IMG/VR virus record: IMGVR_UViG_2919425241_000002
Location: 32,530 to 96,529 of that record
Origin: a virus
Lineage: Duplodnaviria > Caudoviricetes
Strand: one strand, 5' to 3'
Length of the DNA: 64,000 nt
The position numbers were made by a program, and so were the translations under genes. Positions 1 to 63,629 of this stretch are shown one piece after another. Each line of letters starts with the position of its first letter. The stretch's first letter is position 1. Under the pieces are notes generated by a model. The model was given only the letters and a program-made list of their open reading frames with translations, had not been told where the DNA came from and ran no database searches.

Positions 1-230
1 TTTCGGCCACTTAAACGCACAGGACCAAAAAAGCACTAATACGGGTGTTTTTGAGACACTGTTTTGCAACAGAATCGATGCGGTTTTACTCAGATGTTTA
101 CAAAACATAATTAGAAGCATCATTCTGTTCACAAGAGTAAATTTTCACAACAAGCAATTTTTACAGAATTGAACGAGGCGGGCGCAAGATTATTTTCCAG
201 TCATTGTTAAATTCCTTTGCGAAAATTACC

Positions 231-335
231 TCAATCAAACCAGTTGAAAAAGTCCGACAAATCGATGAATAAGCAGCCCCATGTAATGCCGAAAAGAAGA
301 ACGACAGCAACCAGAATAATGATGAACCAAATCAC
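231..335 (-). CDS. Small hydrophobic peptide, 34 aa (VIWFIIILVAVVLLFGITWGCLFIDLSDFFNWFD)
   Basis: Manually translated; GTG start, one TM-like stretch. Confidence 0.4.
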   Translation of the reverse strand: MIWFIIILVAVVLLFGITWGCLFIDLSDFFNWFD

Positions 336-408
336 GGTTTCATCACGTCCCTGCCTTTAGAGTTTATCAATTCTCCGCTAATCATCATTTGCACCTCTCA
401 TGAAATCC

Positions 409-438
409 AGATCAAATGTTCGTAAGAACAAGCATTCG
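409..438. promoter_or_regulatory. Tandem LexA (SOS) box-like sites AGATCAAATGTTCG / AGAACAAGCATTCG
   Basis: Match to Firmicute consensus CGAAC-N4-GTTCG; homologous pair at 62545-62574. Confidence 0.55.
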
Positions 439-585
439 TAAGATCGAGTATCAGACATATTCCCAAAACGGCTGAATTTGCCCGAAAACGAGTGAATTTA
501 AAGACGACTCTTTTTTCCCTACATATTAGATTAATAAGGCCCTTTGTTATACGTACTAAGTTACGTTAGAGCGTATCTTTTAAAA
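417..585 (+). repeat. Conserved non-coding block, inverted copy of ~62400-62566
   Basis: Shared segments GTTCGTAAGAACAAGCATTCGTRAGATCGAGTATC, TTTTTTCC(C)TACAT, AATAAGG and TTATACGTACTWAGTTAC. Confidence 0.8.
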
Positions 586-860
586 CCCCGTTCCCTTAAG
601 GTTTGCGTCTGGTCCATCACTATGGGTCGTGTACAGCAGCTGGTATGCCTCCGGTAAACGTATGGTTTTGATTATTGAGCGACATCATGATTCATTGCCT
701 CCTTAACGATGCTAATGATTAACCCTGCTACGTTCTTGAATGTGGGGTTATGCAGGGATGGTGGTTAGAAACCTGACGGTTTCTTTATTATTATTAGGGC
801 TTGTATTGCAAAAACAGTTGCTTCATACTATTAATTGTAAATATTTAGGGGGGATTCAAT

Positions 861-1712
861 TTGCCAAATAATCTAGGTCTTTCTGAGCAACTGTTGTATT
901 CGACTGCACGCATTGAGTGTACATTAGCTAATGGAACAAGTACCGGTACTGGGTTCTTCTTCTCTTTCGACGTTGATGATGGTCCACTTAAAATTCCTGT
1001 TGTTGTTACCAACAAGCATGTGATTGAGAATTCTGTAACTGGCCGCATTCTCTTTAATGTTGCTGACTCAGAGGGTAACCCGGTTGATACTGAGCATTAT
1101 CCAATCGCGTTAGATAACTTTGAAAGCCGTTGGTTTCTTCACCCAGAACCAGAAGTTGACCTGTGTGTAATGCCGATTGGTCCTTATGTCAATTATGCTA
1201 GCCATCATGGAGAAAAATTGTTTTATAGGACATTAGGAAAACAATACATTCCTAGTTTTGAACAATTAAACGAGCTAGGGGTAATGGAAGAGATAACAAT
1301 GGTTGGATACCCTAGTGGTTTATGGGATGCAGTCAATAATAAACCCATCGTACGAAGAGGAATAACCGCAACACATCCAAAACTTAATTATAATGGCGTT
1401 GAAGAATTTTTAATTGATGCAGCTTGTTACCCAGGTTCGAGCGGTTCTCCTGTAATGATCGTTAACGAAGGAAGCTTCACGAACAGAGCAGGCTTTCAAA
1501 TGGGAGTAAATAGAATTTTTCTACTAGGCATCTTATATGCAGGTCCACAGTTCACTGCAACCGGTCAAATTCGAATGCAAAACATCCCGAATAGACCCGT
1601 ATCAGTATCACATATCCCTATGAATCTAGGAAATGTGATCAAGGCACATAAATTACTTGACTTCGAAGAAATGTTAATTCAATTGTACAAATCATCCCCG
1701 CAACAGAATTAA
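861..1712 (+). CDS. Trypsin-like (S1) serine protease
   Basis: GTGFF, TNKH (His), VDL (Asp), PGSSGSP (Ser) triad motifs; no signal peptide. Confidence 0.85.
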   Translation: MPNNLGLSEQLLYSTARIECTLANGTSTGTGFFFSFDVDDGPLKIPVVVTNKHVIENSVTGRILFNVADSEGNPVDTEHYPIALDNFESRWFLHPEPEVDLCVMPIGPYVNYASHHGEKLFYRTLGKQYIPSFEQLNELGVMEEITMVGYPSGLWDAVNNKPIVRRGITATHPKLNYNGVEEFLIDAACYPGSSGSPVMIVNEGSFTNRAGFQMGVNRIFLLGILYAGPQFTATGQIRMQNIPNRPVSVSHIPMNLGNVIKAHKLLDFEEMLIQLYKSSPQQN

Positions 1713-1761
1713 CCACAACCAGAACATATTTTCTCATTTCATCTCCGCACATTTTCTTTTT

Positions 1762-2091
1762 GTGGTAAAATATAGGATGGGAATGGAGGTGATATTAACG
1801 TTGAAATTGAAAGAGAACCAAAGACTGTGTGGCAATAGATTCCTGTTGGAATTGCACTCGAACTCGTTAAGTATTAAAGATCTGACCGATGTTTTTTCTG
1901 GTCCACACGATATTGAAATCATTACTAATCAAGAAACAGGCAAGTCGATACTTGATCTTTATGAATCCTACTTGAATGACTCTTTTGAAAATGGTTATGA
2001 ATTAATTTTAGGGGAAAAATTATTAGTTCATAAAGACGATAGAAATGATGTATGCCAGCTTCACCTTGCAATACCAAATGAATTCCACTAG
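1762..2091 (+). CDS. Hypothetical protein (true start probably TTG at 1801)
   Basis: ORF with GGAGGTG RBS before TTG 1801. Confidence 0.55.
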   Translation: MVKYRMGMEVILTLKLKENQRLCGNRFLLELHSNSLSIKDLTDVFSGPHDIEIITNQETGKSILDLYESYLNDSFENGYELILGEKLLVHKDDRNDVCQLHLAIPNEFH

Positions 2092-2110
2092 CCCCCGCTA
2101 GTGGTTTTTT
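2085..2110. terminator. Terminator hairpin CCACTAGC-ccc-GCTAGTGG plus T run
   Basis: Inverted repeat between convergent genes; near-identical copy at 63144. Confidence 0.75.
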
Positions 2111-2567
2111 ATTTCCGCTCGATCGGTACTTCACCAAGCAGCAATATTGCCTGCTCTCTTCTCTCATCACTGACAAATCCCGAATAACTCTTGCAGTGAA
2201 TCAAGTGCGGCAGCAGCTGGCCCATATCGTCATCGTCATCAAGGATTACGAAACGCTCGACCGGCTGCTCGAGCTCATCCATAAACAATTGAATCTCTTT
2301 GCCGCGGATCTCCCAATCCAATACAGGAGTTGCACCGATAACATATTTGTCGAGGTCATACCAGGAGAAAAGTTTCTTAATTTCCTCGATCGATAATCCT
2401 TTTCGCCATACTGAGGAAAGAATAATCTTAGCACCGGTGCGCTTGATCACTTCCCGCAGATTTCGGACGGCTACTGGGCAAAATTCCTGCATCATGTGTA
2501 ATCGACTGCGCACCATGTAATCTCGATGATTCATTACTCCGTCAATATCTAGAAAGATTAGCTTCAT
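2109..2567 (-). CDS. HAD-family phosphatase (Swiss-Army-knife RNA-repair-like HAD domain), copy 1
   Basis: FLDIDGV motif I, SSxWR, RGKEI, ILDD motif. Confidence 0.85.
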   Translation of the reverse strand: MKLIFLDIDGVMNHRDYMVRSRLHMMQEFCPVAVRNLREVIKRTGAKIILSSVWRKGLSIEEIKKLFSWYDLDKYVIGATPVLDWEIRGKEIQLFMDELEQPVERFVILDDDDDMGQLLPHLIHCKSYSGFVSDERREQAILLLGEVPIERK

Positions 2568-2809
2568 GAGTATCCCCCTCTAGTTCATCATGTAACGTCC
2601 ACATTGGCACTTAACAGGCATTTACGAATGCCCTAGGTACATTTATGTGGTTTCGTGTTTAACCGCACTTAAAAAGTAAAACGATAAGGTCGTACCATCG
2701 GCTTATTCAGGCGGCCTCCTACGTTACATCAACCTCAGCGCTAAGGATCATTTCACTTTCTAAATGCAGTTTCGGGTAATAAAAAAAGCACCCAAGAGGT
2801 GCTTAAGAC

Positions 2810-3214
2810 TTACTCGACGATTTTTATGTCTGCTCTTTCTAAATAATCATCAAATCCATGTCCACGATGAATCCTGTTGATGATTTTACCTAATCTGTAT
2901 TGTTCGTTAGTTATTGTCATCTCAGGTCTCTTTGGATACGGAATATCCATTCTATAGCCATCAACTGCTACTGTATAGAATGTTTCGATTGTGTTTCCAT
3001 TGTATTTCAACAAATACTTCTTACGATAAGCCTTGGGATCTGAATATCGTTCTACCCAAGACTCATGAAATTCATTGTCGAAATTATCATCACGAACTGT
3101 TAAAATCGTAATCTGAATATCGCTAGTTAAAACAAATAGCCCCAGCTCATCATCATAAATCCAATCGATTGGATCGGATTCTATGATCCTGGATTTAAAT
3201 ACTTCGTACCTCAT
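2810..3214 (-). CDS. Hypothetical protein
   Basis: 134-aa ORF with GGAGGTG RBS and downstream terminator at 2781-2804. Confidence 0.7.
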   Translation of the reverse strand: MRYEVFKSRIIESDPIDWIYDDELGLFVLTSDIQITILTVRDDNFDNEFHESWVERYSDPKAYRKKYLLKYNGNTIETFYTVAVDGYRMDIPYPKRPEMTITNEQYRLGKIINRIHRGHGFDDYLERADIKIVE

Positions 3215-3262
3215 TCTTTCTCACCTCCCACCTACATTTTCCAACATATGCAGCCGGCTTGT

Positions 3263-3544
3263 CTAATCAAGTTTTGATAAAGACAATTTACTCTGCATCA
3301 TTTCTGGAAGATGAACAATGCCATATTTGGCAAAGAAATAAAGGCCGATAAACGCAACAATACCAACGATCATGCTATGTACCTTGCCGCGGATATTAAA
3401 AGCAAACCTCAAGATAATCGCGGTTACTAACGATGGCCCGACAATATACATAAGTAAAAGTTGTACTACTGAATAAGCCATCGCATTAATATTGTTTGTA
3501 AATACTGTAGTTAAACCTTCCAAAACATCGCCTCCATATTCCAT
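3263..3544 (-). CDS. Small membrane protein (2 TM)
   Basis: Hydrophobic ORF; GGAGG RBS before TTG. Confidence 0.6.
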   Translation of the reverse strand: MEYGGDVLEGLTTVFTNNINAMAYSVVQLLLMYIVGPSLVTAIILRFAFNIRGKVHSMIVGIVAFIGLYFFAKYGIVHLPEMMQSKLSLSKLD

Positions 3545-3787
3545 ATATCGGAAATATGAAAAAAATCTTTAATAGAAAACCAAGAGAAGGCGAGATCCCC
3601 GCGAAAATAAAAAGAGCAGGGCTTATGCACGGCCATCGGTGCTTACTTCTCTCACCAATGCAGCGGCGCTGCCTGCTTACGAATTGTTTTATTCGGGTGC
3701 TGCCTTCTTCTTGATTTCCTATGATATAAATTTAACACGTTTAAAACCAAATGGCGTCGTTTTGAGAGCGGCAAAACTACTTTCTTT

Positions 3788-3958
3788 TTACTGATAATCT
3801 TCGGCGCCAAAATTCTCTCTCAATGCCCTTTTCCTTTTCTGCTCCATGTGCAACTTCAGTAAACCTCGCCGTTCAAGTACCTCATTACGCTTGATCATGA
3901 ATTTCATCCTCTGTCGTTGTGGAGTGATCGGGCCGCCGAAAGGTGTATTCCTGGTCAT
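3788..3958 (-). CDS. Small basic protein, 56 aa (MTRNTPFGG...)
   Basis: Manually translated; TGATG stop/start overlap with the upstream peptide. Confidence 0.5.
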   Translation of the reverse strand: MTRNTPFGGPITPQRQRMKFMIKRNEVLERRGLLKLHMEQKRKRALRENFGAEDYQ

Positions 3959-4041
3959 CACTTATTCCGAATAGACTGGACCAGAGCAATGATGCTTAAG
4001 ACAAGAGCTGCCGCGATTACGATCCATGTAATTGTGTTCAT
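3958..4041 (-). CDS. 27-aa single-TM peptide MNTITWIVIAAALVLSIIALVQSIRNK
   Basis: GGGAGGT RBS; hydrophobic helix with basic tail. Confidence 0.6.
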   Translation of the reverse strand: MNTITWIVIAAALVLSIIALVQSIRNK

Positions 4042-4123
4042 AGTAATTACCTCCCGATCTTGATTTGTAAAGCATTTATGTTAAGATTGGGTGGAGAGGT
4101 CTTTCGACCCCTCCGAGGAACCT

Positions 4124-4258
4124 CTAACGTCTGCGCCCTACGCGTCGTTTTCTGGTTCCTTTTTTCTTTTCTTCTTCCTCCTTACGACTTTTACGGTTCA
4201 ATATGATCGCTGTCCAAAGTTGAACCAAAGCCGTTAGAAGCAGTACCCAATCTTTCAT
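4124..4258 (-). CDS. 44-aa peptide with hydrophobic N-terminus and highly charged tail (MKDWVLLLTALVQLWTAIILNRK...RRVGRRR)
   Basis: AAGGGTG RBS; followed by hairpin at 4093-4114. Confidence 0.6.
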   Translation of the reverse strand: MKDWVLLLTALVQLWTAIILNRKSRKEEEEKKKGTRKRRVGRRR

Positions 4259-4401
4259 CTTCTCACCCTTTCAGGAAGCCCTAATGTTTCACTTCCTGTA
4301 TTAAATATATCACTTTCTGTACAAGAAGTCAAATATTATATTTGATTTTCTGTACTTTTTTTATTACTATGGATAGATATAATACAGAAAGGGGTGTTTT
4401 T

Positions 4402-4611
4402 ATGCCATTTTCGTATAAACCCTTATTTAAACTGCTTGTTGATAAAGAGATGAAAAAAACTGATCTGCGACAATTGGGATTCGGTCCTTCAACAATTGCT
4501 AAATTTGATAAAGGTGAAAATGTGTCTTTGGATGTCATTGATAAACTTTGTACTTTTTTTGGAGTACAACCAAATGAGATCATCGAGCACAAACCTGAAA
4601 ATCAGGGCTAA
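4402..4611 (+). CDS. Cro/C1-type HTH transcriptional regulator
   Basis: SYKPLFKLL...STIAK...VSLDVIDKLC...PNEIIE pattern; AAGGGGTG RBS before ATG 4402. Confidence 0.85.
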   Translation: MPFSYKPLFKLLVDKEMKKTDLRQLGFGPSTIAKFDKGENVSLDVIDKLCTFFGVQPNEIIEHKPENQG

Positions 4612-4661
4612 TAAGAAAGAGGAGCCGCCATAATCCCACATGGTAGTTCCTCTTCTTTTTA

Positions 4662-5789
4662 TTAAAATTTCAATCCAATTGTACTTTCTAATGAATCCGC
4701 GGCTTCTTCTTGCATGTTTGGCAGCAAGTGAGAATACGTGTCTAAGGTCAGAGTAATTGTAGAGTGCCCTAGACGTTCTGAGACGACTTTAGGATGCACA
4801 CCTTGCCTTAACATGATAGAAGCATGTGTATGTCTTAAATCATGGAATGTGATTGTTGGAGCTGATTCTGGTTTATAATTCTGCTGCATCGTTTTCCAAG
4901 CATGAATAACTTTAGTTGCCGTGGCCGGTGTCCCTTTGGAACTACATACAACCAAATCATTATCCTCATACTTGATTTTTGGATTTTGCTTCTCAAGCTC
5001 GTTCTTTTGTCTTTGCTCTTCGAGAATAGAGATGATTTGTTGAGAGATCGCGATTGTGCGCCGGCTCTTCTCAGTCTTCAATCCGGTAAATATGGTCATG
5101 TTCTTCACCAAATTACGCCGCACTTGAATAATTCCTTTTTCCATGTCTATATCTGACCACCGAAGCGCAAGGATCTCCCCCTGCCGCATTCCCGTCATAA
5201 CAGCCAAATAAGCGGCGATCCAGTAACGGCTCTCGTTCTTTGTTGCTTGGAAAAACTCTCTAACCGTATCGATGTCCCAAACTGCTCGTTCTTTCCTTTT
5301 GACAGTTGGCTTCTCTATTTTATTGGCAGCGTTCTTCGAGATAAGGTCTTTCCTCTCCGCGGCATTTAGTGAGGCATTCACGGTAGCGAAGATCCGCTTT
5401 ACCATTTCATCGCCTAATTCTTTTTCGCGAATTGATGCAATGAGTTGCTCCATGTGTGTTGCATTGATCTTCGACAAAGGAATGTCTCCGAGAACAGGAT
5501 TAATGTGCGTTCTAAAGTATGACTCATACATTTTCCTGGTTGAGTGTGCAATATTGGCCCGACCAGATAACCACTGCTCAAAATAAGAACCAAAACTCAT
5601 CTTGTTTGGTTCTATGTACTCCCCTTTACTGAGCTCCGTTATAATTGCGGCCCGCGCTTTTTTCGCTTCTGTAATAGTCTTGAACCCCCTGCGCGTGACA
5701 CGCTTGCCGTTAACCATAACCTGAAACCAATAGGGATTACTTTTCGCATTCTCATTAAACTTAATTGTCTTGTCCGAAGATGCTGCCAT
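4662..5789 (-). CDS. Tyrosine integrase with N-terminal arm-binding domain
   Basis: GMRQGEI, FHDLRHTHAS, LGH...TLDTYSH catalytic motifs; GGAGG RBS supports start 5789 rather than 5867. Confidence 0.95.
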   Translation of the reverse strand: MAASSDKTIKFNENAKSNPYWFQVMVNGKRVTRRGFKTITEAKKARAAIITELSKGEYIEPNKMSFGSYFEQWLSGRANIAHSTRKMYESYFRTHINPVLGDIPLSKINATHMEQLIASIREKELGDEMVKRIFATVNASLNAAERKDLISKNAANKIEKPTVKRKERAVWDIDTVREFFQATKNESRYWIAAYLAVMTGMRQGEILALRWSDIDMEKGIIQVRRNLVKNMTIFTGLKTEKSRRTIAISQQIISILEEQRQKNELEKQNPKIKYEDNDLVVCSSKGTPATATKVIHAWKTMQQNYKPESAPTITFHDLRHTHASIMLRQGVHPKVVSERLGHSTITLTLDTYSHLLPNMQEEAADSLESTIGLKF

Positions 5790-5813
5790 GATTGATCCTC
5801 CATTGATATTTAT

Positions 5814-5911
5814 CTGATGCAACCAATTATAAACCAATTGCATCAAATTTGCATCAACTAATAACAAAGCATTGATATATCTGGGTTTTCTTCAATGGTT
5901 TCCACACATCC
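5814..5911. other. Putative att arm of element A
   Basis: Direct repeats TTGCATCAA (5838-5846, 5849-5857) and an inverted copy TGATGCAA (5815-5822), typical of arm-type integrase sites; abuts the gerE fragment. Confidence 0.65.
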
Positions 5912-6058
5912 ATGGGCAGCGACCACAAAAACAAATTTCTACTTACAAACCGCGAACGCGAAGTATTCGAACTATTAGTGCAGGACAAAACGACGAAGGA
6001 TATCGCACAGCAGCTTTTCATCAGTGAGAAAACTGTGAGAAATCATATTTCCAATGTA
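5912..6058 (+). pseudogene. gerE: GerE fragment (49 codons), interrupted gene; ORF reads on into phage sequence to 6205
   Basis: LLTNREREVFELLVQDKTTKDIAQQLFISEKTVRNHISNV is near-identical to GerE; the expected MQKLxVKGRSQAVVEL C-terminus is replaced by unrelated sequence. Confidence 0.93.
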
Positions 6059-6090
6059 ACGTATTATCAAGTCATAACAAATAAAAAGAG
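6040..6090. other. Putative att junction of the serine-recombinase prophage (crossover near 6055-6060)
   Basis: GerE similarity stops at codon V49, about 40 bp from the recombinase stop codon. Confidence 0.8.
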
Positions 6091-6096
6091 GCTAGC

Positions 6097-7689
6097 TTAT
6101 AGCTGCCCCAATACAGTATATACATCCGCTTCGCCTTCTTCAGATATCTCAATACGATCAATAAGCTTGGATAAGGTGATCCTGGTAAACTCTACATCAT
6201 CATAAGTACCCCGAGCTGTAATCTGACTAAGCGCCGCTTTAATGTCTTTATGAAGTTTATCCTTATCTTTTCGCTGAGCATTCTTGGCCCGGATACTACC
6301 AAGCTTCTGTTCAGCATCAGCAATTTCTAATTCATATTGCTGTTTCTCAAATTCATACTGGTTGTCATTCATCTCTTGGAGCATATGCTGCTTCCTGATT
6401 CCAAAAAGAAGCATCCGATTATCTGCGATCGTCTTTTCCAGTCGTTTGATATCCTTCTCGAAATCATTAACTGAGTTTCCGTATTCGGATGTATCAGTTA
6501 TACCACCTGCGAAAGAACCGAAGTTCACCGCTCTGTTCATCCGCTCGACTACCCCATTAATAAGCTCGTCTCTAAACTCTTCATAAGGAACCCAAGATTT
6601 ATTTACACAACCACTAGCACCTTGCCGGCGTCTTTTGCTGCATACCAGATAAGTATACTTCCTAGCTCCCGGTCTCGGGGATCCGGACATTGCTACGATT
6701 GCCGATCCGCAGCACTTACAGAAGATCATCTTAGCGAATGCATTAACAAATTTGCGCTGCCCTCCCCGAGCTCCGCCTCCACGAACCAAGCGTATACGTT
6801 GTGCTTCTTGGAAAGCCTCTGCTGGGATTATTGCTTCATGTGTTTGAAAGTCTGTCTTCTCCCATTTACTTTTATCGCGTAAGCTAAGGACTTTTCTTCT
6901 GTTCTGCAAATCATTAATGTCATCATAGACTTGTCTGGTTTCTAGCTTCGAGAACGTGACATAACCGGTGTATGTTTCATTCTGTAAAATACGTTGAACT
7001 GAGCTTATTCCCCATGTGCCAGTTTTAGGGCTAGGCATGATCTCATTAATTGGGTCATTCAAAAACCCAACAATCAACTTTTCACCCATACCTTTATTGA
7101 TGTATAGATCGAAAATCAGCCTAACCACTTCAGCATGCTCAGGAACTACTTCCAGTGACTTCCTGCCTTCGGCTGTAACAATTTTCTTATAACCAAACGG
7201 TGCAATAGATCCAGTGAAGTTCCCAGACTTTGCAGACTGTCTCTTGCCACGCTTAGACGACGTGCTGATGTTCTCTGATTGCTTTTGGTTAACTGAAGAG
7301 ATGATGCTGAAGATCATTTCATTGTCTTCTTTACCTGAGTCATACATGTCCTCAATTGAGATAACACGAACACCTAGAGCATTGACCAACATCCGTTTTA
7401 GTGAAAGAGCATCGAGAGTGTCACGGCTAAACCTGGACAGAGATGCAAAGTAAATTGTTTTGTACAATCCCTTCTTTGCATCCTCAATTAATTTGCGGAC
7501 ATCTTCCCTCTCAATAATGTTTGTACCGGTATCACGATCAAGGTAAACATGTTCAATCTCTACATTGTCGGATGCCGCGTTTTCGCGGATCAATCCCTCT
7601 TGATGCTCAGGGCTATCTTTTTGGCTATCTTTAAGCGTAGAGACGCGGACATAAGCCCGCGCCTTCTCTTTGGTCAGTTTTTGTTGCAA
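6097..7689 (-). CDS. Large serine recombinase (phage integrase)
   Basis: YVRVST catalytic Ser, SRFSRD, APFGY, recombinase domain, CKCCG...C zinc ribbon, coiled coil. Confidence 0.95.
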   Translation of the reverse strand: MQQKLTKEKARAYVRVSTLKDSQKDSPEHQEGLIRENAASDNVEIEHVYLDRDTGTNIIEREDVRKLIEDAKKGLYKTIYFASLSRFSRDTLDALSLKRMLVNALGVRVISIEDMYDSGKEDNEMIFSIISSVNQKQSENISTSSKRGKRQSAKSGNFTGSIAPFGYKKIVTAEGRKSLEVVPEHAEVVRLIFDLYINKGMGEKLIVGFLNDPINEIMPSPKTGTWGISSVQRILQNETYTGYVTFSKLETRQVYDDINDLQNRRKVLSLRDKSKWEKTDFQTHEAIIPAEAFQEAQRIRLVRGGGARGGQRKFVNAFAKMIFCKCCGSAIVAMSGSPRPGARKYTYLVCSKRRRQGASGCVNKSWVPYEEFRDELINGVVERMNRAVNFGSFAGGITDTSEYGNSVNDFEKDIKRLEKTIADNRMLLFGIRKQHMLQEMNDNQYEFEKQQYELEIADAEQKLGSIRAKNAQRKDKDKLHKDIKAALSQITARGTYDDVEFTRITLSKLIDRIEISEEGEADVYTVLGQL

Positions 7690-7695
7690 AATATA

Positions 7696-7887
7696 TCACA
7701 CCTTTGCGTGGTTACGAATTATTTCATTGAGTCCTATTGTAAGCTTTGCGCCGTGTTTTGTTAATACAGAACTAACATTCGTATTTACGGCCGAAGCAAT
7801 AGCTTCCAAGACATCGCCTTCTACAGGAATGAAATTGATCTTTATCTTTTTCACCTGCTTGCCTTCACGTTTCCCCATAAGCATCAC
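7696..7887 (-). CDS. Small protein directly upstream of the integrase; candidate recombination directionality factor
   Basis: Size and position only; its 3' end supplies the integrase RBS (AAGGTG). Confidence 0.45.
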   Translation of the reverse strand: MMLMGKREGKQVKKIKINFIPVEGDVLEAIASAVNTNVSSVLTKHGAKLTIGLNEIIRNHAKV

Positions 7888-7905: not shown

Positions 7906-8502
7906 TTAAGGCTGTACATCTTTCTCGCTTTCCTTCTTCTCCCGCTGCTTCTTATCAGGCTCTGATTCCTTATAAACCTCGATATCCAGCGCCAGAGCTA
8001 TCTTGTAGAAGGCTTTGTTTCGGATCTTCCTATAAAACGTCGCTCCGATCGGCGGATTAAAAACATGGTTGTATACGTTATAATCTGTGATGTATTCAGC
8101 ATCATCCGAGAGGTAACGACTTTCCATTAACAGCCGTTCCATCCGCGGCAGCCTCTTAACTGCGGCTTCCAACCTCTCGCAATGCTTTTTCCTTCTGGCT
8201 GGCTCATCAACATTGAAAATTGCTATGTTAGCGGTCTGATCACTGGTGACGTTTGTCGGTGAGCTCCTCGGCATATCAGAGTATGCAGCCGTGATTGTTG
8301 CTTCCCTTGACTCAAAATCCATGTGTTTGAACATGCGATATTCAGCTAAATATCTCTCAACAGCCTCTTTTGTTAAATCCCGATCGATCTCCTTTAAGAA
8401 ATCGTCACCTAAGCTTAATTGAGCCAAACAATCCAACTCCTTTTTACTGGAGCTATTCTCCGTTACATTTTTCTTCATTTCCGGCATTTTGCGTTGCATC
8501 AA
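7906..8502 (-). CDS. ArpU/RinA-family late transcription activator
   Basis: ITAAYSDMPRS...SDQT...AVKRLP..ER.L...RYL...DY.VY...FY.IR.KAFYKIALAL. Confidence 0.9.
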   Translation of the reverse strand: MMQRKMPEMKKNVTENSSSKKELDCLAQLSLGDDFLKEIDRDLTKEAVERYLAEYRMFKHMDFESREATITAAYSDMPRSSPTNVTSDQTANIAIFNVDEPARRKKHCERLEAAVKRLPRMERLLMESRYLSDDAEYITDYNVYNHVFNPPIGATFYRKIRNKAFYKIALALDIEVYKESEPDKKQREKKESEKDVQP

Positions 8503-9868: not shown

Positions 9869-10081
9869 TTGCTTGGATATAAATTGAGTAGAAAGGAGAT
9901 GGTGACAATCCCTAATTCGATTCATCATATGGCATCTAAGCAAGACCTTATTGATATCATGCAGACATGTGCAGACCAACAACAATGGAGAGCTGCATTA
10001 AAGTTATTCGAACTGTTACAAAAGATGGAGAAGGATAATAAAAACGCTGTTCTAATAGAGATCAGATCCGCACCACCGTAG
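9869..10081 (+). CDS. Hypothetical accessory protein (start probably near 9899-9929)
   Basis: AAGGAG RBS; opposite strand to the operon. Confidence 0.5.
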   Translation: MLGYKLSRKEMVTIPNSIHHMASKQDLIDIMQTCADQQQWRAALKLFELLQKMEKDNKNAVLIEIRSAPP

Positions 10082-11095: not shown

Positions 11096-11106
11096 CGTTC
11101 ACTCTC

Positions 11107-11628: not shown

Positions 11629-12084
11629 TTACTCTTCGTCCAAGAACGTTAACGGGGCATCTTGATCCTCTTCCTCATCGGGATCCGGAGTAAAAGGAAG
11701 GTCGTCCTCAGACACCTCACTGTCCTCTTCTGGTAGATCTGGTTCCTCGTGGGCCTCATCTGATTCTAATTGCTCATTAACTTCTTCTGTTTGTTCCTCA
11801 ACATCGGATGATCCTTTCGTTTCCACATCGTCAATCGCCAGTTGATTTTCATCTTCCTTAACTGACTCAACAGCGCCGGAATTCGTAACAACCTGCAGTC
11901 CGCGTCGTGGTTCCAAGTAATCCCGGACTTCCATTTGGGAAATTCCAAGGGCCAGGTAAAACTCATCGCGCTGCTTCAGTTCGTTCAAATCATCGAGGCT
12001 CACGCTTGACGGTAGGCTCAAGACGATTTCTACACCTTTACCACTTGTAATTTTCTTAATAGAAGCTGTTGTTTTGATTGTCAT
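11629..12084 (-). CDS. Hypothetical protein with acidic C-terminus
   Basis: ORF in operon followed by a hairpin. Confidence 0.65.
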   Translation of the reverse strand: MTIKTTASIKKITSGKGVEIVLSLPSSVSLDDLNELKQRDEFYLALGISQMEVRDYLEPRRGLQVVTNSGAVESVKEDENQLAIDDVETKGSSDVEEQTEEVNEQLESDEAHEEPDLPEEDSEVSEDDLPFTPDPDEEEDQDAPLTFLDEE

Positions 12085-25303: not shown

Positions 25304-26845
25304 ATGTTAATGGGTTTTTTCGAAAAAATTCGAAATATATTTTCGGATGAAATTGGCTACAGGAATAATTCATATCATACTAAAGGAGTAAGTGATAAGA
25401 AAATAATGGTGCCTAGAGATAATGACCACTTAGAGGTACTCAATATTGGTAGCAAAACAATTATCATGATTTACGGCTCTTATAGTAATGATAACAAAAG
25501 TAAATGTTGGATTGAAGGAAATTTGCAAGACGGGGAATGGGTGGATGCGGTAATTATGGAGCATACTGTATTCCAACCAGATAAAGACCTTTGGACCCGC
25601 CCTCCCATTAAAGGTCAAATAGGAACATATAATGGGGGATGGAAAAATAATAAATTTCATGGGTATGGTGTCCTTGAGACAACCGATATTCGAGCATTGT
25701 ATAGAAAATTTTACGATTTTCTTAAATTAGAACCAGGGGAAAAAACTAATCTTTTGGGGGATCACGGAAGTAATTCGGGTGCTCTTTTCCTACTTACCAA
25801 ATACGAAGGAAACTTTATAGACGGAATATTTAATGGTGAAGGAAAAGCCTATTACGGTAGGAGAACATATGATAAAGTTATTACCCAATTGTTATATGAA
25901 GGCGAATTTCAGTATGGAGTACGCAATGGGATTGGAAAAACATTTTATGACGACGGCTTAGTTCAATATGAAGGGCAATGGCTTCAAGGAAATATAGAAG
26001 GTAAAGGTGTATACAGGCTTAGAGCCGGAGATTTACTTTCGGGTAACTTTAAAAAAAATAGTTTTATTGATAAAAAGAACAACCGTTTATTAAAAGTTAT
26101 TGATTCGCCTTCAGTATCAGGTTCAGGTTGTACTATTATTTATGAGGGCGGCATAAAAGACGGAAAACGGAATGGTCGGGGGAAAGAATACGATAACGGT
26201 CATGTAATATATGATGGATACTGGCTTAACGATAAAAGGCACGGTCATGGTAGTTCTTTCAGAGTTATTGATTATTATGATAAAGCAAGGTCAGTGAAAG
26301 AATATTGTGGGGAATGGGTAGAAGATAAAAAAAGCGGTGTTGGAACATCTTTTTTTGAGGATGGGAATATAGCATATCAAGGGCAATGGCAAAATGATTC
26401 CTTTCATGGGTCTGGTGTCTCATATAATCCTGAGAAAGATTGGGGTTATTACGGACATAAACTTTCCTATAGTGGGGGGTACCATTACGGTCTTTATCAT
26501 GGACTTGGCACCCTCTATACACGTCAAGGTAAATTTGAAGGGGAGTTTGAAAACCATAATATTGTCGAAAATAAGGGGAAATGGATTTATTACCTCAGTC
26601 ATGTAAAAGACTTTAACAAAGACAGAGGATTTGGTTTTATTCTGAAACATACTGAGTTGGTAGCTGGTAAAACTCCTAATCTTAAGGAGGATATATTTTT
26701 TCACATTAGCGATTTTCAGGGAAATGCAGAAGAAAGGTTCTCTTTAATAAATGGGGAATCGACTCGAGTGAGGTTTGAGTTGGCATATGATAGTACAAAG
26801 GGTCCAAGAGCCGTTAGAGTTTCATTACATAAAATTAGCCAGTGA
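25304..26845 (+). CDS. MORN-repeat protein with C-terminal cold-shock domain
   Basis: Many Y.G.W/F..G...G.G repeats; FNKDRGFGFI...DIFFHISDF...KGPRAVRV. Confidence 0.85.
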   Translation: MLMGFFEKIRNIFSDEIGYRNNSYHTKGVSDKKIMVPRDNDHLEVLNIGSKTIIMIYGSYSNDNKSKCWIEGNLQDGEWVDAVIMEHTVFQPDKDLWTRPPIKGQIGTYNGGWKNNKFHGYGVLETTDIRALYRKFYDFLKLEPGEKTNLLGDHGSNSGALFLLTKYEGNFIDGIFNGEGKAYYGRRTYDKVITQLLYEGEFQYGVRNGIGKTFYDDGLVQYEGQWLQGNIEGKGVYRLRAGDLLSGNFKKNSFIDKKNNRLLKVIDSPSVSGSGCTIIYEGGIKDGKRNGRGKEYDNGHVIYDGYWLNDKRHGHGSSFRVIDYYDKARSVKEYCGEWVEDKKSGVGTSFFEDGNIAYQGQWQNDSFHGSGVSYNPEKDWGYYGHKLSYSGGYHYGLYHGLGTLYTRQGKFEGEFENHNIVENKGKWIYYLSHVKDFNKDRGFGFILKHTELVAGKTPNLKEDIFFHISDFQGNAEERFSLINGESTRVRFELAYDSTKGPRAVRVSLHKISQ

Positions 26846-27012
26846 TATAGCAACATAGCGAAAATGTTTTTTTATAGTCCTGATTATAAAACTAACGAGG
26901 AACGTTAGTTCAATGACAAGCAAAACCCACCAACAAATGGTGGGTTTTGTAAATTACGTCATCAAGGAAAACATAAAATAAAATCACTGTTCAATTAAAG
27001 CAAAATAATAGT

Positions 27013-27276
27013 TCAATAACGCATAGGAAGTAAATCGTTTATGGTTAAAACCTTTGTCATACCTTTTTGGCTACTGTTGTGGTGTTTCATAAGTATAACT
27101 AAAGCCCTGTCACACATTTCATGATCTTCCTCAAGATTGTTAAGAAATATCTGGTAACAACCACTGCAAATTTCATTATATATTCCGCAGATATTCCCAA
27201 GTGGCAGTTGAAGAACATTTACGTTTTGAAGTACTGCCATGTTAATTGATGCATTAATCTTCTTCTCTTTGTGCAT
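27013..27276 (-). CDS. Small protein resembling a degenerate ImmA/IrrE domain (no HExxH)
   Basis: LPLGNICGIY...IFLNN...LMKHH; AGGGGATG RBS; SOS box upstream. Confidence 0.5.
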   Translation of the reverse strand: MHKEKKINASINMAVLQNVNVLQLPLGNICGIYNEICSGCYQIFLNNLEEDHEMCDRALVILMKHHNSSQKGMTKVLTINDLLPMRY

Positions 27277-27340
27277 AATTCATCCCCTGGTATGTATTTT
27301 TTTCGGCAATAAACGTATACAAGCTCCCCTTCAATATAAC

Positions 27341-27354
27341 AGAACATTCGTTTG
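27341..27354. promoter_or_regulatory. LexA box AGAACATTCGTTTG
   Basis: Consensus-like site upstream of 27013-27276. Confidence 0.55.
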
Positions 27355-27399
27355 CATAAATGTCATAATCCGGTCAAAATTAGCTTCTTACAGCATTAC

Positions 27400-27647
27400 G
27401 CGGTAAGCTTGGGTTTATCGGAGTTATGGGCATTGGTGATTATCTCGGTGATTTTCTGTGTTGGACACTTTATGCAGGGATTAAGTGGTATAATCAGTTC
27501 AACGATATTCGGGCTATCACGGGGTATTTGTATTTCACAACAGGCAGCTTATTTATTCCGATCATCCTTCACATTCTATACGATGCAAAAGCAATATATA
27601 TAACGATAATTCTTCAAAAAGAAAAGAGGGGAAGTTGGATTGTCTAA
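27400..27647 (+). pseudogene. Frameshifted C-terminal remnant of a CPBP (CAAX/Abi) intramembrane protease
   Basis: SVIFCVGHFMQG in one frame, GYLYFTTGSLFIPIILHILYD in another. Confidence 0.65.
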
Positions 27648-28632
27648 GCTTTGCTCAAAACACCGTGAAGAGCTGTTCGAGAAAATCGAGAACAACAAAA
27701 TCGTGGCGTTCTGCGTGGATTGTGAGATCGACCGCATCTATAAGACAGAAGAACTGAAACACCGCGCTACTTTTCAAAGCATAAAAGGTGAAAACATTGC
27801 CATCATGAGAAAATACAAAGACAGTTTCGCTTCAGAACGCGTCAAATACCTAGCGAAGAAATTTCTACGTGTTTTGTTGTTTACTGGGTTATCATTTATT
27901 TTGATAGGCTGGTTCTTTTCATTTCTTATAAGTCTTTCACTCGCGCTTGCGGAAGGTTTATTGCATCGATTTTTCACCTTTACAGCTTCATTTGACAGTA
28001 GTTTGTTAGGTGCTGATTATTGGATATCAGCAGGCATTTATTTTTTGATTGTGTTTATTTTTTATTGGCGTCAAGATGAAACTAAAATGCTCCAACCGCA
28101 ACTGATTCCCGAACCCATCCCTCCTGTTCGAGAGCAAATAGAGAATCGTGTTTTAGACGAGGCAGAAAGGCAAATTTCAGAGGTTACGAAATACAAAAAG
28201 CGGATTCTCGAAGAATACTTGCTGGTGGCTTCCGACATCCAAGAGGTAGACCAAATGGAAGGCGTGGAATTTGAGCATTTTTTAGCGGATATATTCCGAC
28301 GCAAAGGGTACAATGTGCAATTAACGCCGGCCAGCGGCGACGACGGCGTGGACTTAATCATCGAGAAAGCAAGAAGAAAAATCGCCGTCCAATGCAAACG
28401 ATATAGCGGGACGGTTGGCGTATCAGCCGTCCAGGAAGTGTTTGCGGGTAAATCCTTCTATGATTGCGATGAGGCTATGGTGGTCACGAACTCCACCTTA
28501 ACGGCACCTGCCGTCAAGACAGCGCGGAAACTCGGCGTGACACTCTGGGACCGAAGCCGTTTGATTGATGTGCTGGCGGAAACGCAGACGTCAATCGAAT
28601 GGGACGATTATCTAAAACGTTATTATGCATAA
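27640..28632 (+). CDS. Membrane-anchored Mrr-family restriction endonuclease
   Basis: EFEHFLA...GY...T..SGDDGVDL...VQCKRY...AVQE...VVTNS; two TM segments; N-terminal CxxH...CxxC. Confidence 0.88.
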   Translation: MSKLCSKHREELFEKIENNKIVAFCVDCEIDRIYKTEELKHRATFQSIKGENIAIMRKYKDSFASERVKYLAKKFLRVLLFTGLSFILIGWFFSFLISLSLALAEGLLHRFFTFTASFDSSLLGADYWISAGIYFLIVFIFYWRQDETKMLQPQLIPEPIPPVREQIENRVLDEAERQISEVTKYKKRILEEYLLVASDIQEVDQMEGVEFEHFLADIFRRKGYNVQLTPASGDDGVDLIIEKARRKIAVQCKRYSGTVGVSAVQEVFAGKSFYDCDEAMVVTNSTLTAPAVKTARKLGVTLWDRSRLIDVLAETQTSIEWDDYLKRYYA

Positions 28633-31278: not shown

Positions 31279-32317
31279 TCTCGATGATCATTCCTTTCTT
31301 GAGTGGCGCCAACAATCTCTCCCACTCTCTATCGCCGCCAATGTATGGAGTCTGAACTAAAATATCTTCCCCGTGGGAATAGATGCAACGCCCCTTATCC
31401 TTAGGATTAATCTTCTCAGCTCCAGGACGATCAATGATAATTTGGGACCCGAAGTGATCCTTAGTTCGGAATGCAATGGAAGCTTCAACGTTATCTTTGA
31501 ATTGCTTATTGATCACTCTAGCATCCGGCCGCTGTGTTCCGTAGATGCAAAACACTTTAGGTTCACGTCCTTTTCGACCGATGAATCCAATTGCATAATC
31601 ACAATCGAATGCTAGTTCCTTATCCATAGTTCTCGCGGCGTACTGGGTTGGCGAAAGGTCAGCCGCCTCATCAATGAGTACAACAATCGGCTTGAAAGCA
31701 GCAACAGTCTCTTCACGATTCCCAAACTCCCTCGACTGAATTACGGCCTTTCTCCTCTCGAGCTCCTTCACCAATCCCACAAGTATCTTCCTGCTGGATT
31801 TAAGTTCATCCGCAACCGTTACAAGCCCCTCAAAAGGTGAGAAGGAATATCCTTTCATGTCGCAGATGTATACTTCGTAACCTTGCAAAAGAAGTTGATA
31901 TGCAATCCATCTCTGCCAATCCGTCTTTCCTGCACCGGACGCACCGCCCTCCAGAATATGAACATTAAGGGGATGGTAAACAGGTTGCATTAACCGATCG
32001 TAGCCAATAAGCAATTGATTCTGCTTCAAGTGCTCCTTCTTAAAGCGCAAAGGAAACGGCCAATCTTTTTCGATGATTCTGCAGACGAGCAGCCCCTTGA
32101 AGTTGATTAACTCAACTTCTTTCCCACACGTCGCTATAAGCGCAGGAAGGTATTTCTCAGCCTCTTCATAGGACGAGTTTAGCGGTACATGGAATCCGAT
32201 TTCCCACCCGCATATGACCCTTCTATGCTTGTAATACGTCCAACCCTTTTGCCCTTCCTTGATGTCTTTTAGCAATGGCTTATTGAGTATTCGAAGAATG
32301 CGTTGTGTGTAGTTCAT
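31040..32317 (-). CDS. FtsK/SpoIIIE-domain ATPase
   Basis: GGASGAGKT Walker A, DMKG, LIDEAADL Walker B, GR...TQRPD. Confidence 0.88.
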   Translation of the reverse strand: MNYTQRILRILNKPLLKDIKEGQKGWTYYKHRRVICGWEIGFHVPLNSSYEEAEKYLPALIATCGKEVELINFKGLLVCRIIEKDWPFPLRFKKEHLKQNQLLIGYDRLMQPVYHPLNVHILEGGASGAGKTDWQRWIAYQLLLQGYEVYICDMKGYSFSPFEGLVTVADELKSSRKILVGLVKELERRKAVIQSREFGNREETVAAFKPIVVLIDEAADLSPTQYAARTMDKELAFDCDYAIGFIGRKGREPKVFCIYGTQRPDARVINKQFKDNVEASIAFRTKDHFGSQIIIDRPGAEKINPKDKGRCIYSHGEDILVQTPYIGGDREWERLLAPLKKGMIIENGNSERTNKERNYTEGSFTSSNSSHGSDSKTVQLKFQPTKESFTEPSGTASGKTNRMGMAQTRKNMASNTKGPADDEWV

Positions 32318-32588
32318 ATGCTTACGAGAACGAGGACTAAAGCTGCAGATAAGAGAAGTACAAGCGTAGTTTTTGGGTGATCTTTAAACCAATTTGAATT
32401 TGGTGTTGAACCTTGTTGATCTTGCCAGAATGGATCGGCCATAATGGCGGCACCTCCAGTGAGCGCAATGCGCGAATAAGTGAGTTGAGTGGAACGAAAC
32501 GAAAGGATACGAAAAAATTAATAGGGGTGAATGTCACATAAGTTAAGCCGAACAAGCAATGAATTACCTCCCTGTACCATTCACCCCT

Positions 32589-63167: not shown

Positions 63168-63629
63168 TCATTTCCGCTCGATCGGTACTTCACCAAGCAG
63201 TAATATCGCCTGTTCTCTTCTCTCATCACTGACAAACCCTGAATAACTCTTACAGTGAATCAAATGCGGCAGCAGCTTGCCCATGTCGTCATCGTCATCA
63301 AGAATAATGAAACTCTCGATCGGTTGCAGCTTGAATTCATCCATAAACAACTGAATCTCTTTGCCGCGGATCTCCCAATCCAATACTGGAGTTTTCCCAA
63401 TCACATACTTGTCGAGATCATACCAAGAAAACAGCTTCTTAATTTCTTTGATCGATAATCCTTTTCGCCAAGTCGAGGAAAGAACAATATTAGCGCCAGT
63501 GCGTTTAACCACTTCACGCAAATTACGAACAGCAACCGGACAAAACTCTTGCATCATGTGTAATCTGCTTCGTACCATGTAATTTCTATGATTCATGACA
63601 CCATCAATGTCTAGGAAGATTAGCTTCAA
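63168..63629 (-). CDS. HAD-family phosphatase, copy 2
   Basis: 14 differences over 153 aligned positions from 2109-2567. Confidence 0.85.
   Translation of the reverse strand: MKLIFLDIDGVMNHRNYMVRSRLHMMQEFCPVAVRNLREVVKRTGANIVLSSTWRKGLSIKEIKKLFSWYDLDKYVIGKTPVLDWEIRGKEIQLFMDEFKLQPIESFIILDDDDDMGKLLPHLIHCKSYSGFVSDERREQAILLLGEVPIERK

Follow-up and report, generated by a model that had tools for sequence, protein, structure and literature searches.

The stretch of DNA studied here, hereafter the window, is 64,000 nucleotides long and makes up the right two-thirds of a virus record of 96,529 bp (IMGVR_UViG_2919425241_000002; Caudoviricetes, from a Paenibacillus genome). It contains a fragment of gerE, a small gene that encodes a spore-coat regulator and is expressed specifically in the mother cell (PMC5595907); the fragment lies between the right arm of one prophage (A) and the beginning of another (B); two temperate phages occupy two different gerE sites in a single Paenibacillus chromosome. 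The translation of the fragment corresponds to residues 1–49 of the 73-residue GerE protein (full gene: 222 bp), and these residues are 100% identical in P. plantarum, P. alba and the strains 2RAB27 and Soil787, the four best of the 80 gerE loci returned by a scan of species-representative genomes. Three of these four loci continue to a 73-residue protein, and the gerE gene of Soil787 is cut at the same 3′ site. When the whole record was compared with intact gerE loci, the DNA homology was confined to window positions 5903–6057 (89–93% identity), i.e., nine leader bases followed by codons 1–49, and motif and BLAST searches of the 96.5 kb revealed no promoter piece and no C-terminal piece of the gene. 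The record starts exactly with an ATG and ends exactly with a GTG start codon read on the opposite strand, from which it follows that it is a trimmed provirus excerpt rather than a whole contig, and that neither of its prophage ends should be taken for a real boundary.

The two breaks delimiting the fragment were defined by alignment with uninterrupted gerE genes. On the left, the intact relatives show the promoter, AAGGAGGGGTGA, CACACATCC and the ATG in succession, whereas the window shows CAATGGTTTC, CACACATCC and the ATG; the break thus separates the Shine-Dalgarno sequence from the start codon. Because the sequences diverge upstream of CACACATCC, the window has neither the Shine-Dalgarno sequence nor the sigma-K-type promoter (AC-N17-CATAAACTA) that precedes gerE in intact relatives, and of which equivalents exist in two other lineages. 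A preliminary description, made from the letters of the window alone, had already remarked on the absence of both signals, and the alignment bears this out: the uninterrupted relatives do not have the sequence at 5870–5902, the common part being the last nine bases before the ATG. On the right, the break falls after the AAT GT of codons 48–49, at the Asn48 codon; beyond codon 49, the reading frame diverges from GerE, and the stop codon of a large serine recombinase gene is only 39 bp away. The loss of the C-terminus next to this gene, as first described, is therefore confirmed, the remaining part being recognizable by its PF00196 match (Table 1).

The same description had proposed that the fragment is bordered by recombinases of two different chemistries, and this holds for both the Pfam domains and the catalytic residues of the two enzymes. 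In the tyrosine integrase of prophage A, the catalytic set (R202, K238, H316, R319, H342, Y352) is invariant across four integrases located at the gerE site, while in the serine recombinase of prophage B, the catalytic Ser17 of the YVRVST motif is invariant in the aligned recombinases of gerE elements. The spacer between the integrase gene and the ATG (5790–5911; 122 bp, with 113 bp from the integrase start to the left core) was said to hold repeats, which are indeed present: three of the seven window copies of TTGCATCA are clustered there in 42 bp. This repeat is conserved beside the integrases of Brevibacillus panacihumi and of G008, a genome from the genus of P. plantarum, and represents a candidate arm-type site.

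Table 1. Features of the interrupted gerE locus and of the adjoining prophage ends (window coordinates).
Feature	Position	Strand	Evidence and remarks
Right arm of prophage A	1–5902		Extends left over the entire 32.5 kb preceding the window and past the start of the record
Cro/C1-type helix-turn-helix gene (HTH_26)	4402–4611	+	PF13443, E 6.8e-14; adjoins the 3′ end of the integrase gene
Tyrosine integrase of prophage A, 375 amino acids	4662–5789	-	Phage_integrase (1.2e-29), SAM-like, Arm-DNA-bind_4 (PF14657)
Three TTGCATCA repeats, candidate arm-type integrase sites or operator	5815–5822; 5838–5845; 5849–5856	-; +; +	Spacer between integrase gene and core
Right attachment site (attR) core of prophage A, CACACATCCATGGGCA, 16 bp	5903–5918	+	Spacer between Shine-Dalgarno sequence and ATG, ATG and 4 bases
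gerE middle piece, codons 1–49	5912–6058	+	Pfam GerE PF00196, E 1.9e-16; DNA and protein alignment
Crossover region AATGT of prophage B	6053–6057	+	AA of the Asn48 codon is the symmetry centre of the inferred phage attachment site (attP)
Prophage B	6058–64000		Early genes, cargo, then lysis, tail, head, terminase; continues past the record end
Half-site TATTATCAA, element side, prophage B	6062–6070	+	Forms an inverted repeat with TTGATAATA, present in the X1 far-end flank
Large serine recombinase of prophage B, 530 amino acids	6097–7689	-	Pfam Resolvase, Recombinase, Zn_ribbon_recom
63-residue open reading frame, candidate directionality factor	7696–7887	-	Directly upstream of the serine recombinase; no Pfam match
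ArpU-like regulator gene	7906–8502	-	Last early gene before the integration module; no Pfam match

The two missing pieces were recovered from run X1 (8.2 Mb of contigs), which contains all sampled words of the double junction and probably corresponds to the same data as the record. Runs X2–X13 and X15 contain less than 7% of the sampled words each, and carry no information on the junctions; in X5, the contigs are all short, nearly all below 90% identity and from other organisms. Run X14 yields a single 642-bp contig going from the promoter to nucleotide 197 of gerE with both sites unbroken, which indicates that it comes from a relative and not from the source strain. When the contigs of X1 were aligned to the intact P. 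plantarum gerE locus, exactly three gerE pieces were found, on three contigs of similar depth. The first (65.9 kb; depth 97) has the promoter, the Shine-Dalgarno sequence and the core; its match stops at core base 16, where it goes on with TAATTCGTAAATCC... into a phage-type flank resembling the left attachment site (attL) flank of a related prophage. The second (5.1 kb; depth 81) spans both junctions of the middle piece, including both window flanks, while the third (2.0 kb; depth 74) has the C-terminal piece directly preceded by ...GGTATTTGATAATATATCAT, which is the mirror-image half of the attachment site of the right element. The far-end flanks of both elements are absent from the record, the left copy of the prophage A core being seen only in the X1 contig, and no intact gerE copy exists among the contigs of X1.

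The gene is consequently split into three pieces: promoter, Shine-Dalgarno sequence and core; core and codons 1–49; codons 48/49–73. The preliminary description was right about the three pieces, and the two then missing ones do lie beside phage-type flanks, but it had assigned the start codon to the promoter piece; the middle piece has not lost it, because a copy of the 16-bp core holding the ATG stands at either end of the left element. Joined in silico, the attL of the window and the attR of X1 restore Ser-Asn-Val-Met-Gln on the right side, and the duplicated core restores the succession of Shine-Dalgarno sequence, spacer and ATG on the left side. Hence, precise recombination at both site pairs would rebuild gerE exactly, and the cell could make GerE only after two separate DNA excisions. 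One might suspect an artefact of the assembly or of the record, for instance two prophage ends joined into a chimera by way of a short gerE-like sequence, given that the record is an excerpt of a provirus trimmed at gene limits and that the only run containing it is probably its own source. We nevertheless find such an artefact hardly credible: the 5.1-kb contig crosses both junctions, each junction type occurs alone in other genomes with matching far ends, and the three-piece layout recurs on a single contig in P. phyllosphaerae (see below).

Each of the two gerE sites is indeed occupied singly in related species. The 5′ site, counting that of the window, is filled in at least eight genomes from three genera. 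In G008, an integrase 82% identical to that of prophage A is found at the same junction and gerE is otherwise intact; the promoter and Shine-Dalgarno piece is on a separate contig, the two pieces overlap by the 16 bp of CACACATCCATGGGCA, and the same 16 bp are present at both ends of the related prophage. The core, including the start codon, amounts to 13 bp in P. phyllosphaerae (element of 3.9 kb) and to 11 bp in Brevibacillus panacihumi (element of 5.1 kb), with identical copies at both ends of these two elements, whereas in cases with pieces on separate contigs, it is 9 bp for G052 (a second species of the genus of P. phyllosphaerae) and the overlap is 14–18 bp for two further Brevibacillus species. 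All these 5′-site integrases are 45–82% identical to that of the window and keep the R-K-H-R-H-Y set. Moreover, in every fully sampled element, an excisionase-type gene of the HTH_17 family (xis) lies across attP from the integrase gene (int), in the order xis, attP, int; prophage A probably carries xis at its unseen left end. Two orientations are observed. In the window and in G008, int is adjacent to gerE, and xis adjoins the promoter piece and is directed against the promoter. In the elements of Brevibacillus, P. phyllosphaerae and G052, the gerE promoter is followed on the same strand by int, at a distance of 120–390 bp in four of five cases and of 2.5 kb in Brevibacillus panacihumi, an arrangement in which the host gerE promoter may drive int and may itself time excision. 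Beyond this set, the integrase has few relatives: a scan of viral contigs returned only two distant matches (57% and 32%), without gerE context, no isolated phage has a close relative (best identity 36%), and the other homologues in the genus (35–46% identity) do not adjoin gerE within the flanks examined.

Many tyrosine-integrase phages rebuild their target gene, and prophage A could likewise supply its own promoter and translation signals and leave gerE active, as phages targeting tRNA genes do. Partial gerE copies next to an intact gene in G021, G032, Brevibacillus fortis and B. formosus would fit such a habit. In the window, as in G008, the element-side sequence preceding the ATG (CAATGGTTTCCACACATCC) nevertheless shows no match to a Shine-Dalgarno sequence, which implies that the middle piece should not be translated; furthermore, the window offers no in-frame upstream start, and no -10 element is positioned for a leaderless transcript. 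We thus regard gene replacement by prophage A as very improbable. The partial copies themselves lie 2–13 kb away from the intact gene; the loci concerned are G021 (C1:1481491-1494653), G032 (C6:261005-266787), L069:7956-8158 and L072:8126-8286, 9903-9998 and 11749-11830, in genomes of Paenibacillus and Brevibacillus that include the two Brevibacillus species just named. They may be remnants of elements that brought a partial replacement or scars of earlier integrations; in B. fortis, the 1.9 kb between the gerE copies contain no integrase.

The 3′ site is occupied in eight genomes in the sample of 80 species loci, in three in a sample of the genus of P. plantarum (37 species) and in four in one of the genus of P. 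phyllosphaerae (30 species), by elements ranging from 2.85 kb to more than 58 kb. Combining the attL flank of the window with the attR flank of X1 gives an attP with the arms TTGATAATA / TATTATCAA, symmetric about AA. This centre, common to three unrelated gerE elements, is the same in those of G003 and P. phyllosphaerae and in the attP of phage Lily, and the gerE-splitting elements of Soil787 (45.7 kb) and P. phyllosphaerae (3.1 kb) have different arms around the same centre. Within the 80 gerE loci, the motif CATCTCAAA occurs only at the His-Ile-Ser-Asn codons. The recombinases of two other gerE elements are 49% and 45% identical to the serine enzyme of prophage B, which reaches 51–52% identity, over 99% of its length, with the integrases of the P. 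larvae phages Lily and Xenia, their relatives being in the same range. The small open reading frame upstream of the prophage B gene has counterparts of weak similarity in G003, P. phyllosphaerae and phage Lily (gp70), which touch or overlap the start of the recombinase gene, while the ArpU-like gene is 51% identical to Lily gp69 (annotated as ArpU-like) and 55% identical to the syntenic gene of the G008 prophage. The smallest gerE-intervening element of our survey, at L141 (G054:C1:543300-546800), measures 2.85 kb and has little beyond the serine recombinase; its shared core is unusually long (about 15 bp, ACACATATCTAACGT).

Both sites are filled together in three genomes from two genera, with independent double interruptions in P. 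phyllosphaerae and G052. In P. phyllosphaerae CECT 5862, the whole arrangement is contained on a single contig within about 10 kb: promoter, Shine-Dalgarno sequence and core, the 3.9-kb element (int, xis), codons 1–49, the 3.1-kb element (serine recombinase) and the C-terminal piece. The recombination genes of this strain all have open reading frames, and rejoining would give a normal GerE. In G052, the three gerE pieces are on three contigs, of which the expected ends bear the tyrosine integrase, xis and the serine recombinase. More generally, elements stripped of all phage genes exist at the 5′ site (3.9 and 5.1 kb) and at the 3′ site (2.85, 3.1 and 9.3 kb), with recombinase and xis genes still open and flanking gerE pieces undamaged, a state of preservation that is hard to explain without selection for excision.

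The two elements of the window are large. Prophage A has genes for portal/Mu-F, prohead protease, tail proteins, lysin and a ThsB-TIR cargo in the 32.5 kb to the left of the window, followed at window positions 861–2567 by a trypsin-like peptidase gene and a HAD gene, whereas prophage B encodes a DnaB helicase, TerL, a lysin, a Mrr-type nuclease and other cargo. Common to the two prophages are a lysis and tail-fibre block (72–82% identity) and an HAD_SAK_2 gene (HAD domain of ‘Swiss Army Knife’ RNA-repair proteins), of which the two copies (2109–2567 and 63168–63629; 85% identical) occupy the same relative place, near the end that has an actual or would-be tyrosine-type integration module. Furthermore, the G008 prophage (C13:180233-202819 and C38:17000-36838) is collinear with prophage B over window positions 11100–62915 (66–78% identity), but has xis and a tyrosine integrase in place of the small open reading frame and the serine recombinase. 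It follows that related phage backbones have exchanged their integration modules, both of which are aimed at gerE.

A few other genes of the two prophages deserve a mention. Just past the lysin gene of prophage A, positions 1–2115 of the record (30.4–32.5 kb to the left of the window) hold a ThsB-type TIR gene, a gene for a 227-residue protein without Pfam match and a second TIR-domain gene, a cluster that looks like defence cargo. Nearer to the window (31757–32476, i.e., 53–772 bases before it), a 239-residue resolvase/invertase (Resolvase and HTH_7) adjoins the putative terminase genes of the same prophage. In the cargo of prophage B (window 25304–28632), a 513-residue MORN-repeat protein with a C-terminal cold-shock domain is encoded along with a 330-residue Mrr-type restriction endonuclease protein.

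Altogether, we consider it rather probable that prophages A and B, sitting in the two gerE sites, are both excised in the mother cell, GerE production then requiring two recombinations. As for skin, SPbeta and gin, both elements would be excised in the terminally differentiated mother cell, the forespore keeping both, and GerE would appear only after two independent events, an arrangement that can reasonably be likened to a developmental AND gate. On the tyrosine side, an HTH_17 Xis like those of the relatives is presumed, while the 63-residue open reading frame is the candidate directionality factor for prophage B. Concerning the time of excision, we infer from the mini-elements, by an evolutionary argument, that both elements would leave the chromosome during sporulation.

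Several points weigh against this scenario. The only run containing this DNA consists of contigs, which drop rare rejoined forms, and its support is not independent because it is probably the source of the record itself. In the sequences upstream of int, xis and the serine recombinase gene, a full sigma-K/E match was found only before the xis of Brevibacillus panacihumi, the other matches being -10-like only; in the window, the 63-residue open reading frame is preceded by nothing but a -10 match (CATAGAATA), and a scan for sigma-70 promoters and terminators performed no better than on shuffled sequence. Regarding prophage A, its attL and xis lie outside of the record, and its orientation makes the gerE promoter point antisense into the presumed xis. 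Finally, both elements look like complete prophages as far as the record reaches, and are possibly recent, in which case the strain may simply be GerE-negative.

Alternatively, the arrangement would be a plain double lysogeny knocking out gerE, with no developmental programme: the gene would serve as a harmless landing pad only, exit would occur only upon SOS-type induction, and the lysogen would form GerE-less spores or rely on rare spontaneous excision. The size and apparent completeness of the two prophages of the window agree with it, as does the lack of a convincing sporulation promoter in the window. Bacillus subtilis gerE mutants still form heat-resistant spores. In addition, cultures readily yield new lysogens with Xenia in gerE (PMC12453123). 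However, the decayed mini-elements keep open int, xis and serine recombinase genes and undamaged gerE pieces at both sites, and gin leaves this same site of gerE specifically during sporulation (PMC5595907). On balance, we regard a mere knock-out by two lysogenic phages as unlikely, while granting it appreciable weight. Excision of both elements in the mother cell thus remains our preferred interpretation. As an extension to the 5′ site as a whole, we propose, tentatively and at slightly less than even chances, that the bases separating the Shine-Dalgarno sequence from the ATG, along with the start codon, form the bacterial attachment site (attB) of a family of tyrosine-integrase/Xis elements of Paenibacillus and Brevibacillus, which would go from active prophages to domesticated remnants of 4–5 kb and be excised in the mother cell.

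These results add to gerE a second docking site, located between the ribosome-binding site and the start codon and used by a tyrosine integrase with an excisionase. They also reveal natural genomes in which both sites are filled and two independent recombinations are needed to rebuild the gene, as well as swapped integration modules, where related backbones have a tyrosine or a serine module at the same place, both targeting gerE. If mother-cell excision is true, the 5′ elements would provide the first sporulation-gene rearrangement by a tyrosine recombinase, and the double carriers a two-input gate operated by different recombination chemistries. Why gerE attracts unrelated recombinases is a question raised by Abe et al. 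2017 (PMC5595907). It can now be addressed directly, since P. phyllosphaerae CECT 5862, which has both mini-elements, is a culture-collection strain.

In the publications consulted on rearrangements of sporulation genes (sigK, spsM, spoVFB, spoVR, gerE, yabG), there is one element per gene and the named recombinases are of the serine type. Our literature search returned no description of a doubly interrupted sporulation gene, of a tyrosine-integrase element in a sporulation gene or of the gerE site between Shine-Dalgarno sequence and ATG. The preliminary description, which knew of no precedent, thus stands for the tyrosine-integrase site and the double occupancy, which appear to be new, but not for the serine-recombinase half, which is already known in kind: the docking site of prophage B is that of gin and Xenia, to which it adds a further case. 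A prophage in gerE has also been noted in B. glycinifermentans.

Among the closest known systems is gin, which interrupts gerE in Bacillus cereus ATCC 10987 and encodes the serine recombinase GirC and the recombination directionality factor GirX (Abe et al. 2017, PMC5595907). The gene is the same, the predicted crossover falls at the same His-Ile-Ser-Asn codons, and a large serine recombinase gene adjoins the junction. The 9-bp core of gin is CATCTCAAA, with cleavage predicted at its terminal AA (PMC5595907), and this AA of the Asn codon is also the attP symmetry centre inferred for prophage B and three relatives. Yet gin, an island of non-phage nature, has three recombinases and interrupts gerE once, whereas here the site is taken by a full prophage and the gene is cut a second time by an unrelated element. 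Phage Xenia is reported to integrate into the gerE gene of P. larvae with a 9-bp duplication, as shown in new lysogens in 2025; this integration was presented as a route to phage resistance, excision during sporulation being outside the subject of that paper (PMC12453123). Phage Lily shares with prophage B the module order of ArpU-like regulator, small open reading frame, serine recombinase and attP. Its attP (NC_028841.1, about 42856–42909; L142:2767-2820) directly follows the integrase gene and consists of inverted repeats around CACATCTCCAATGTAACAT, which is the His-Ile-Ser-Asn-Val sequence of gerE, but its half-site (GTTTCAAAC) differs from that of prophage B (TTGATAATA). Owing to this match with the gerE codons, Lily-type phages are predicted to integrate into gerE, as Xenia does.

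SPbeta in spsM and skin in sigK of Bacillus subtilis (SprA/SprB and SpoIVCA/Skr, respectively) are likewise a prophage or a prophage remnant inside a mother-cell gene that is rebuilt by precise excision, and remnants of this type keep only the recombination unit (PMC4191935, PMC6957869). They differ in relying on serine recombinases and in making one cut per gene, inside the coding frame, unlike the 5′ gerE element, which uses a tyrosine integrase with Xis and parts the ribosome-binding site from the start codon. The need for several recombinations is paralleled by the nif elements of heterocysts (XisA, XisC, XisF), where several elements interrupt one gene set in a terminally differentiated cell. 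In Calothrix NIES-4101, nifBHDK is divided into 13 parts, and both tyrosine and serine recombinases are used (PMC4874684, PMC11249958). These heterocyst elements, however, belong to cyanobacteria rather than to endospore formers and are mostly not prophages.

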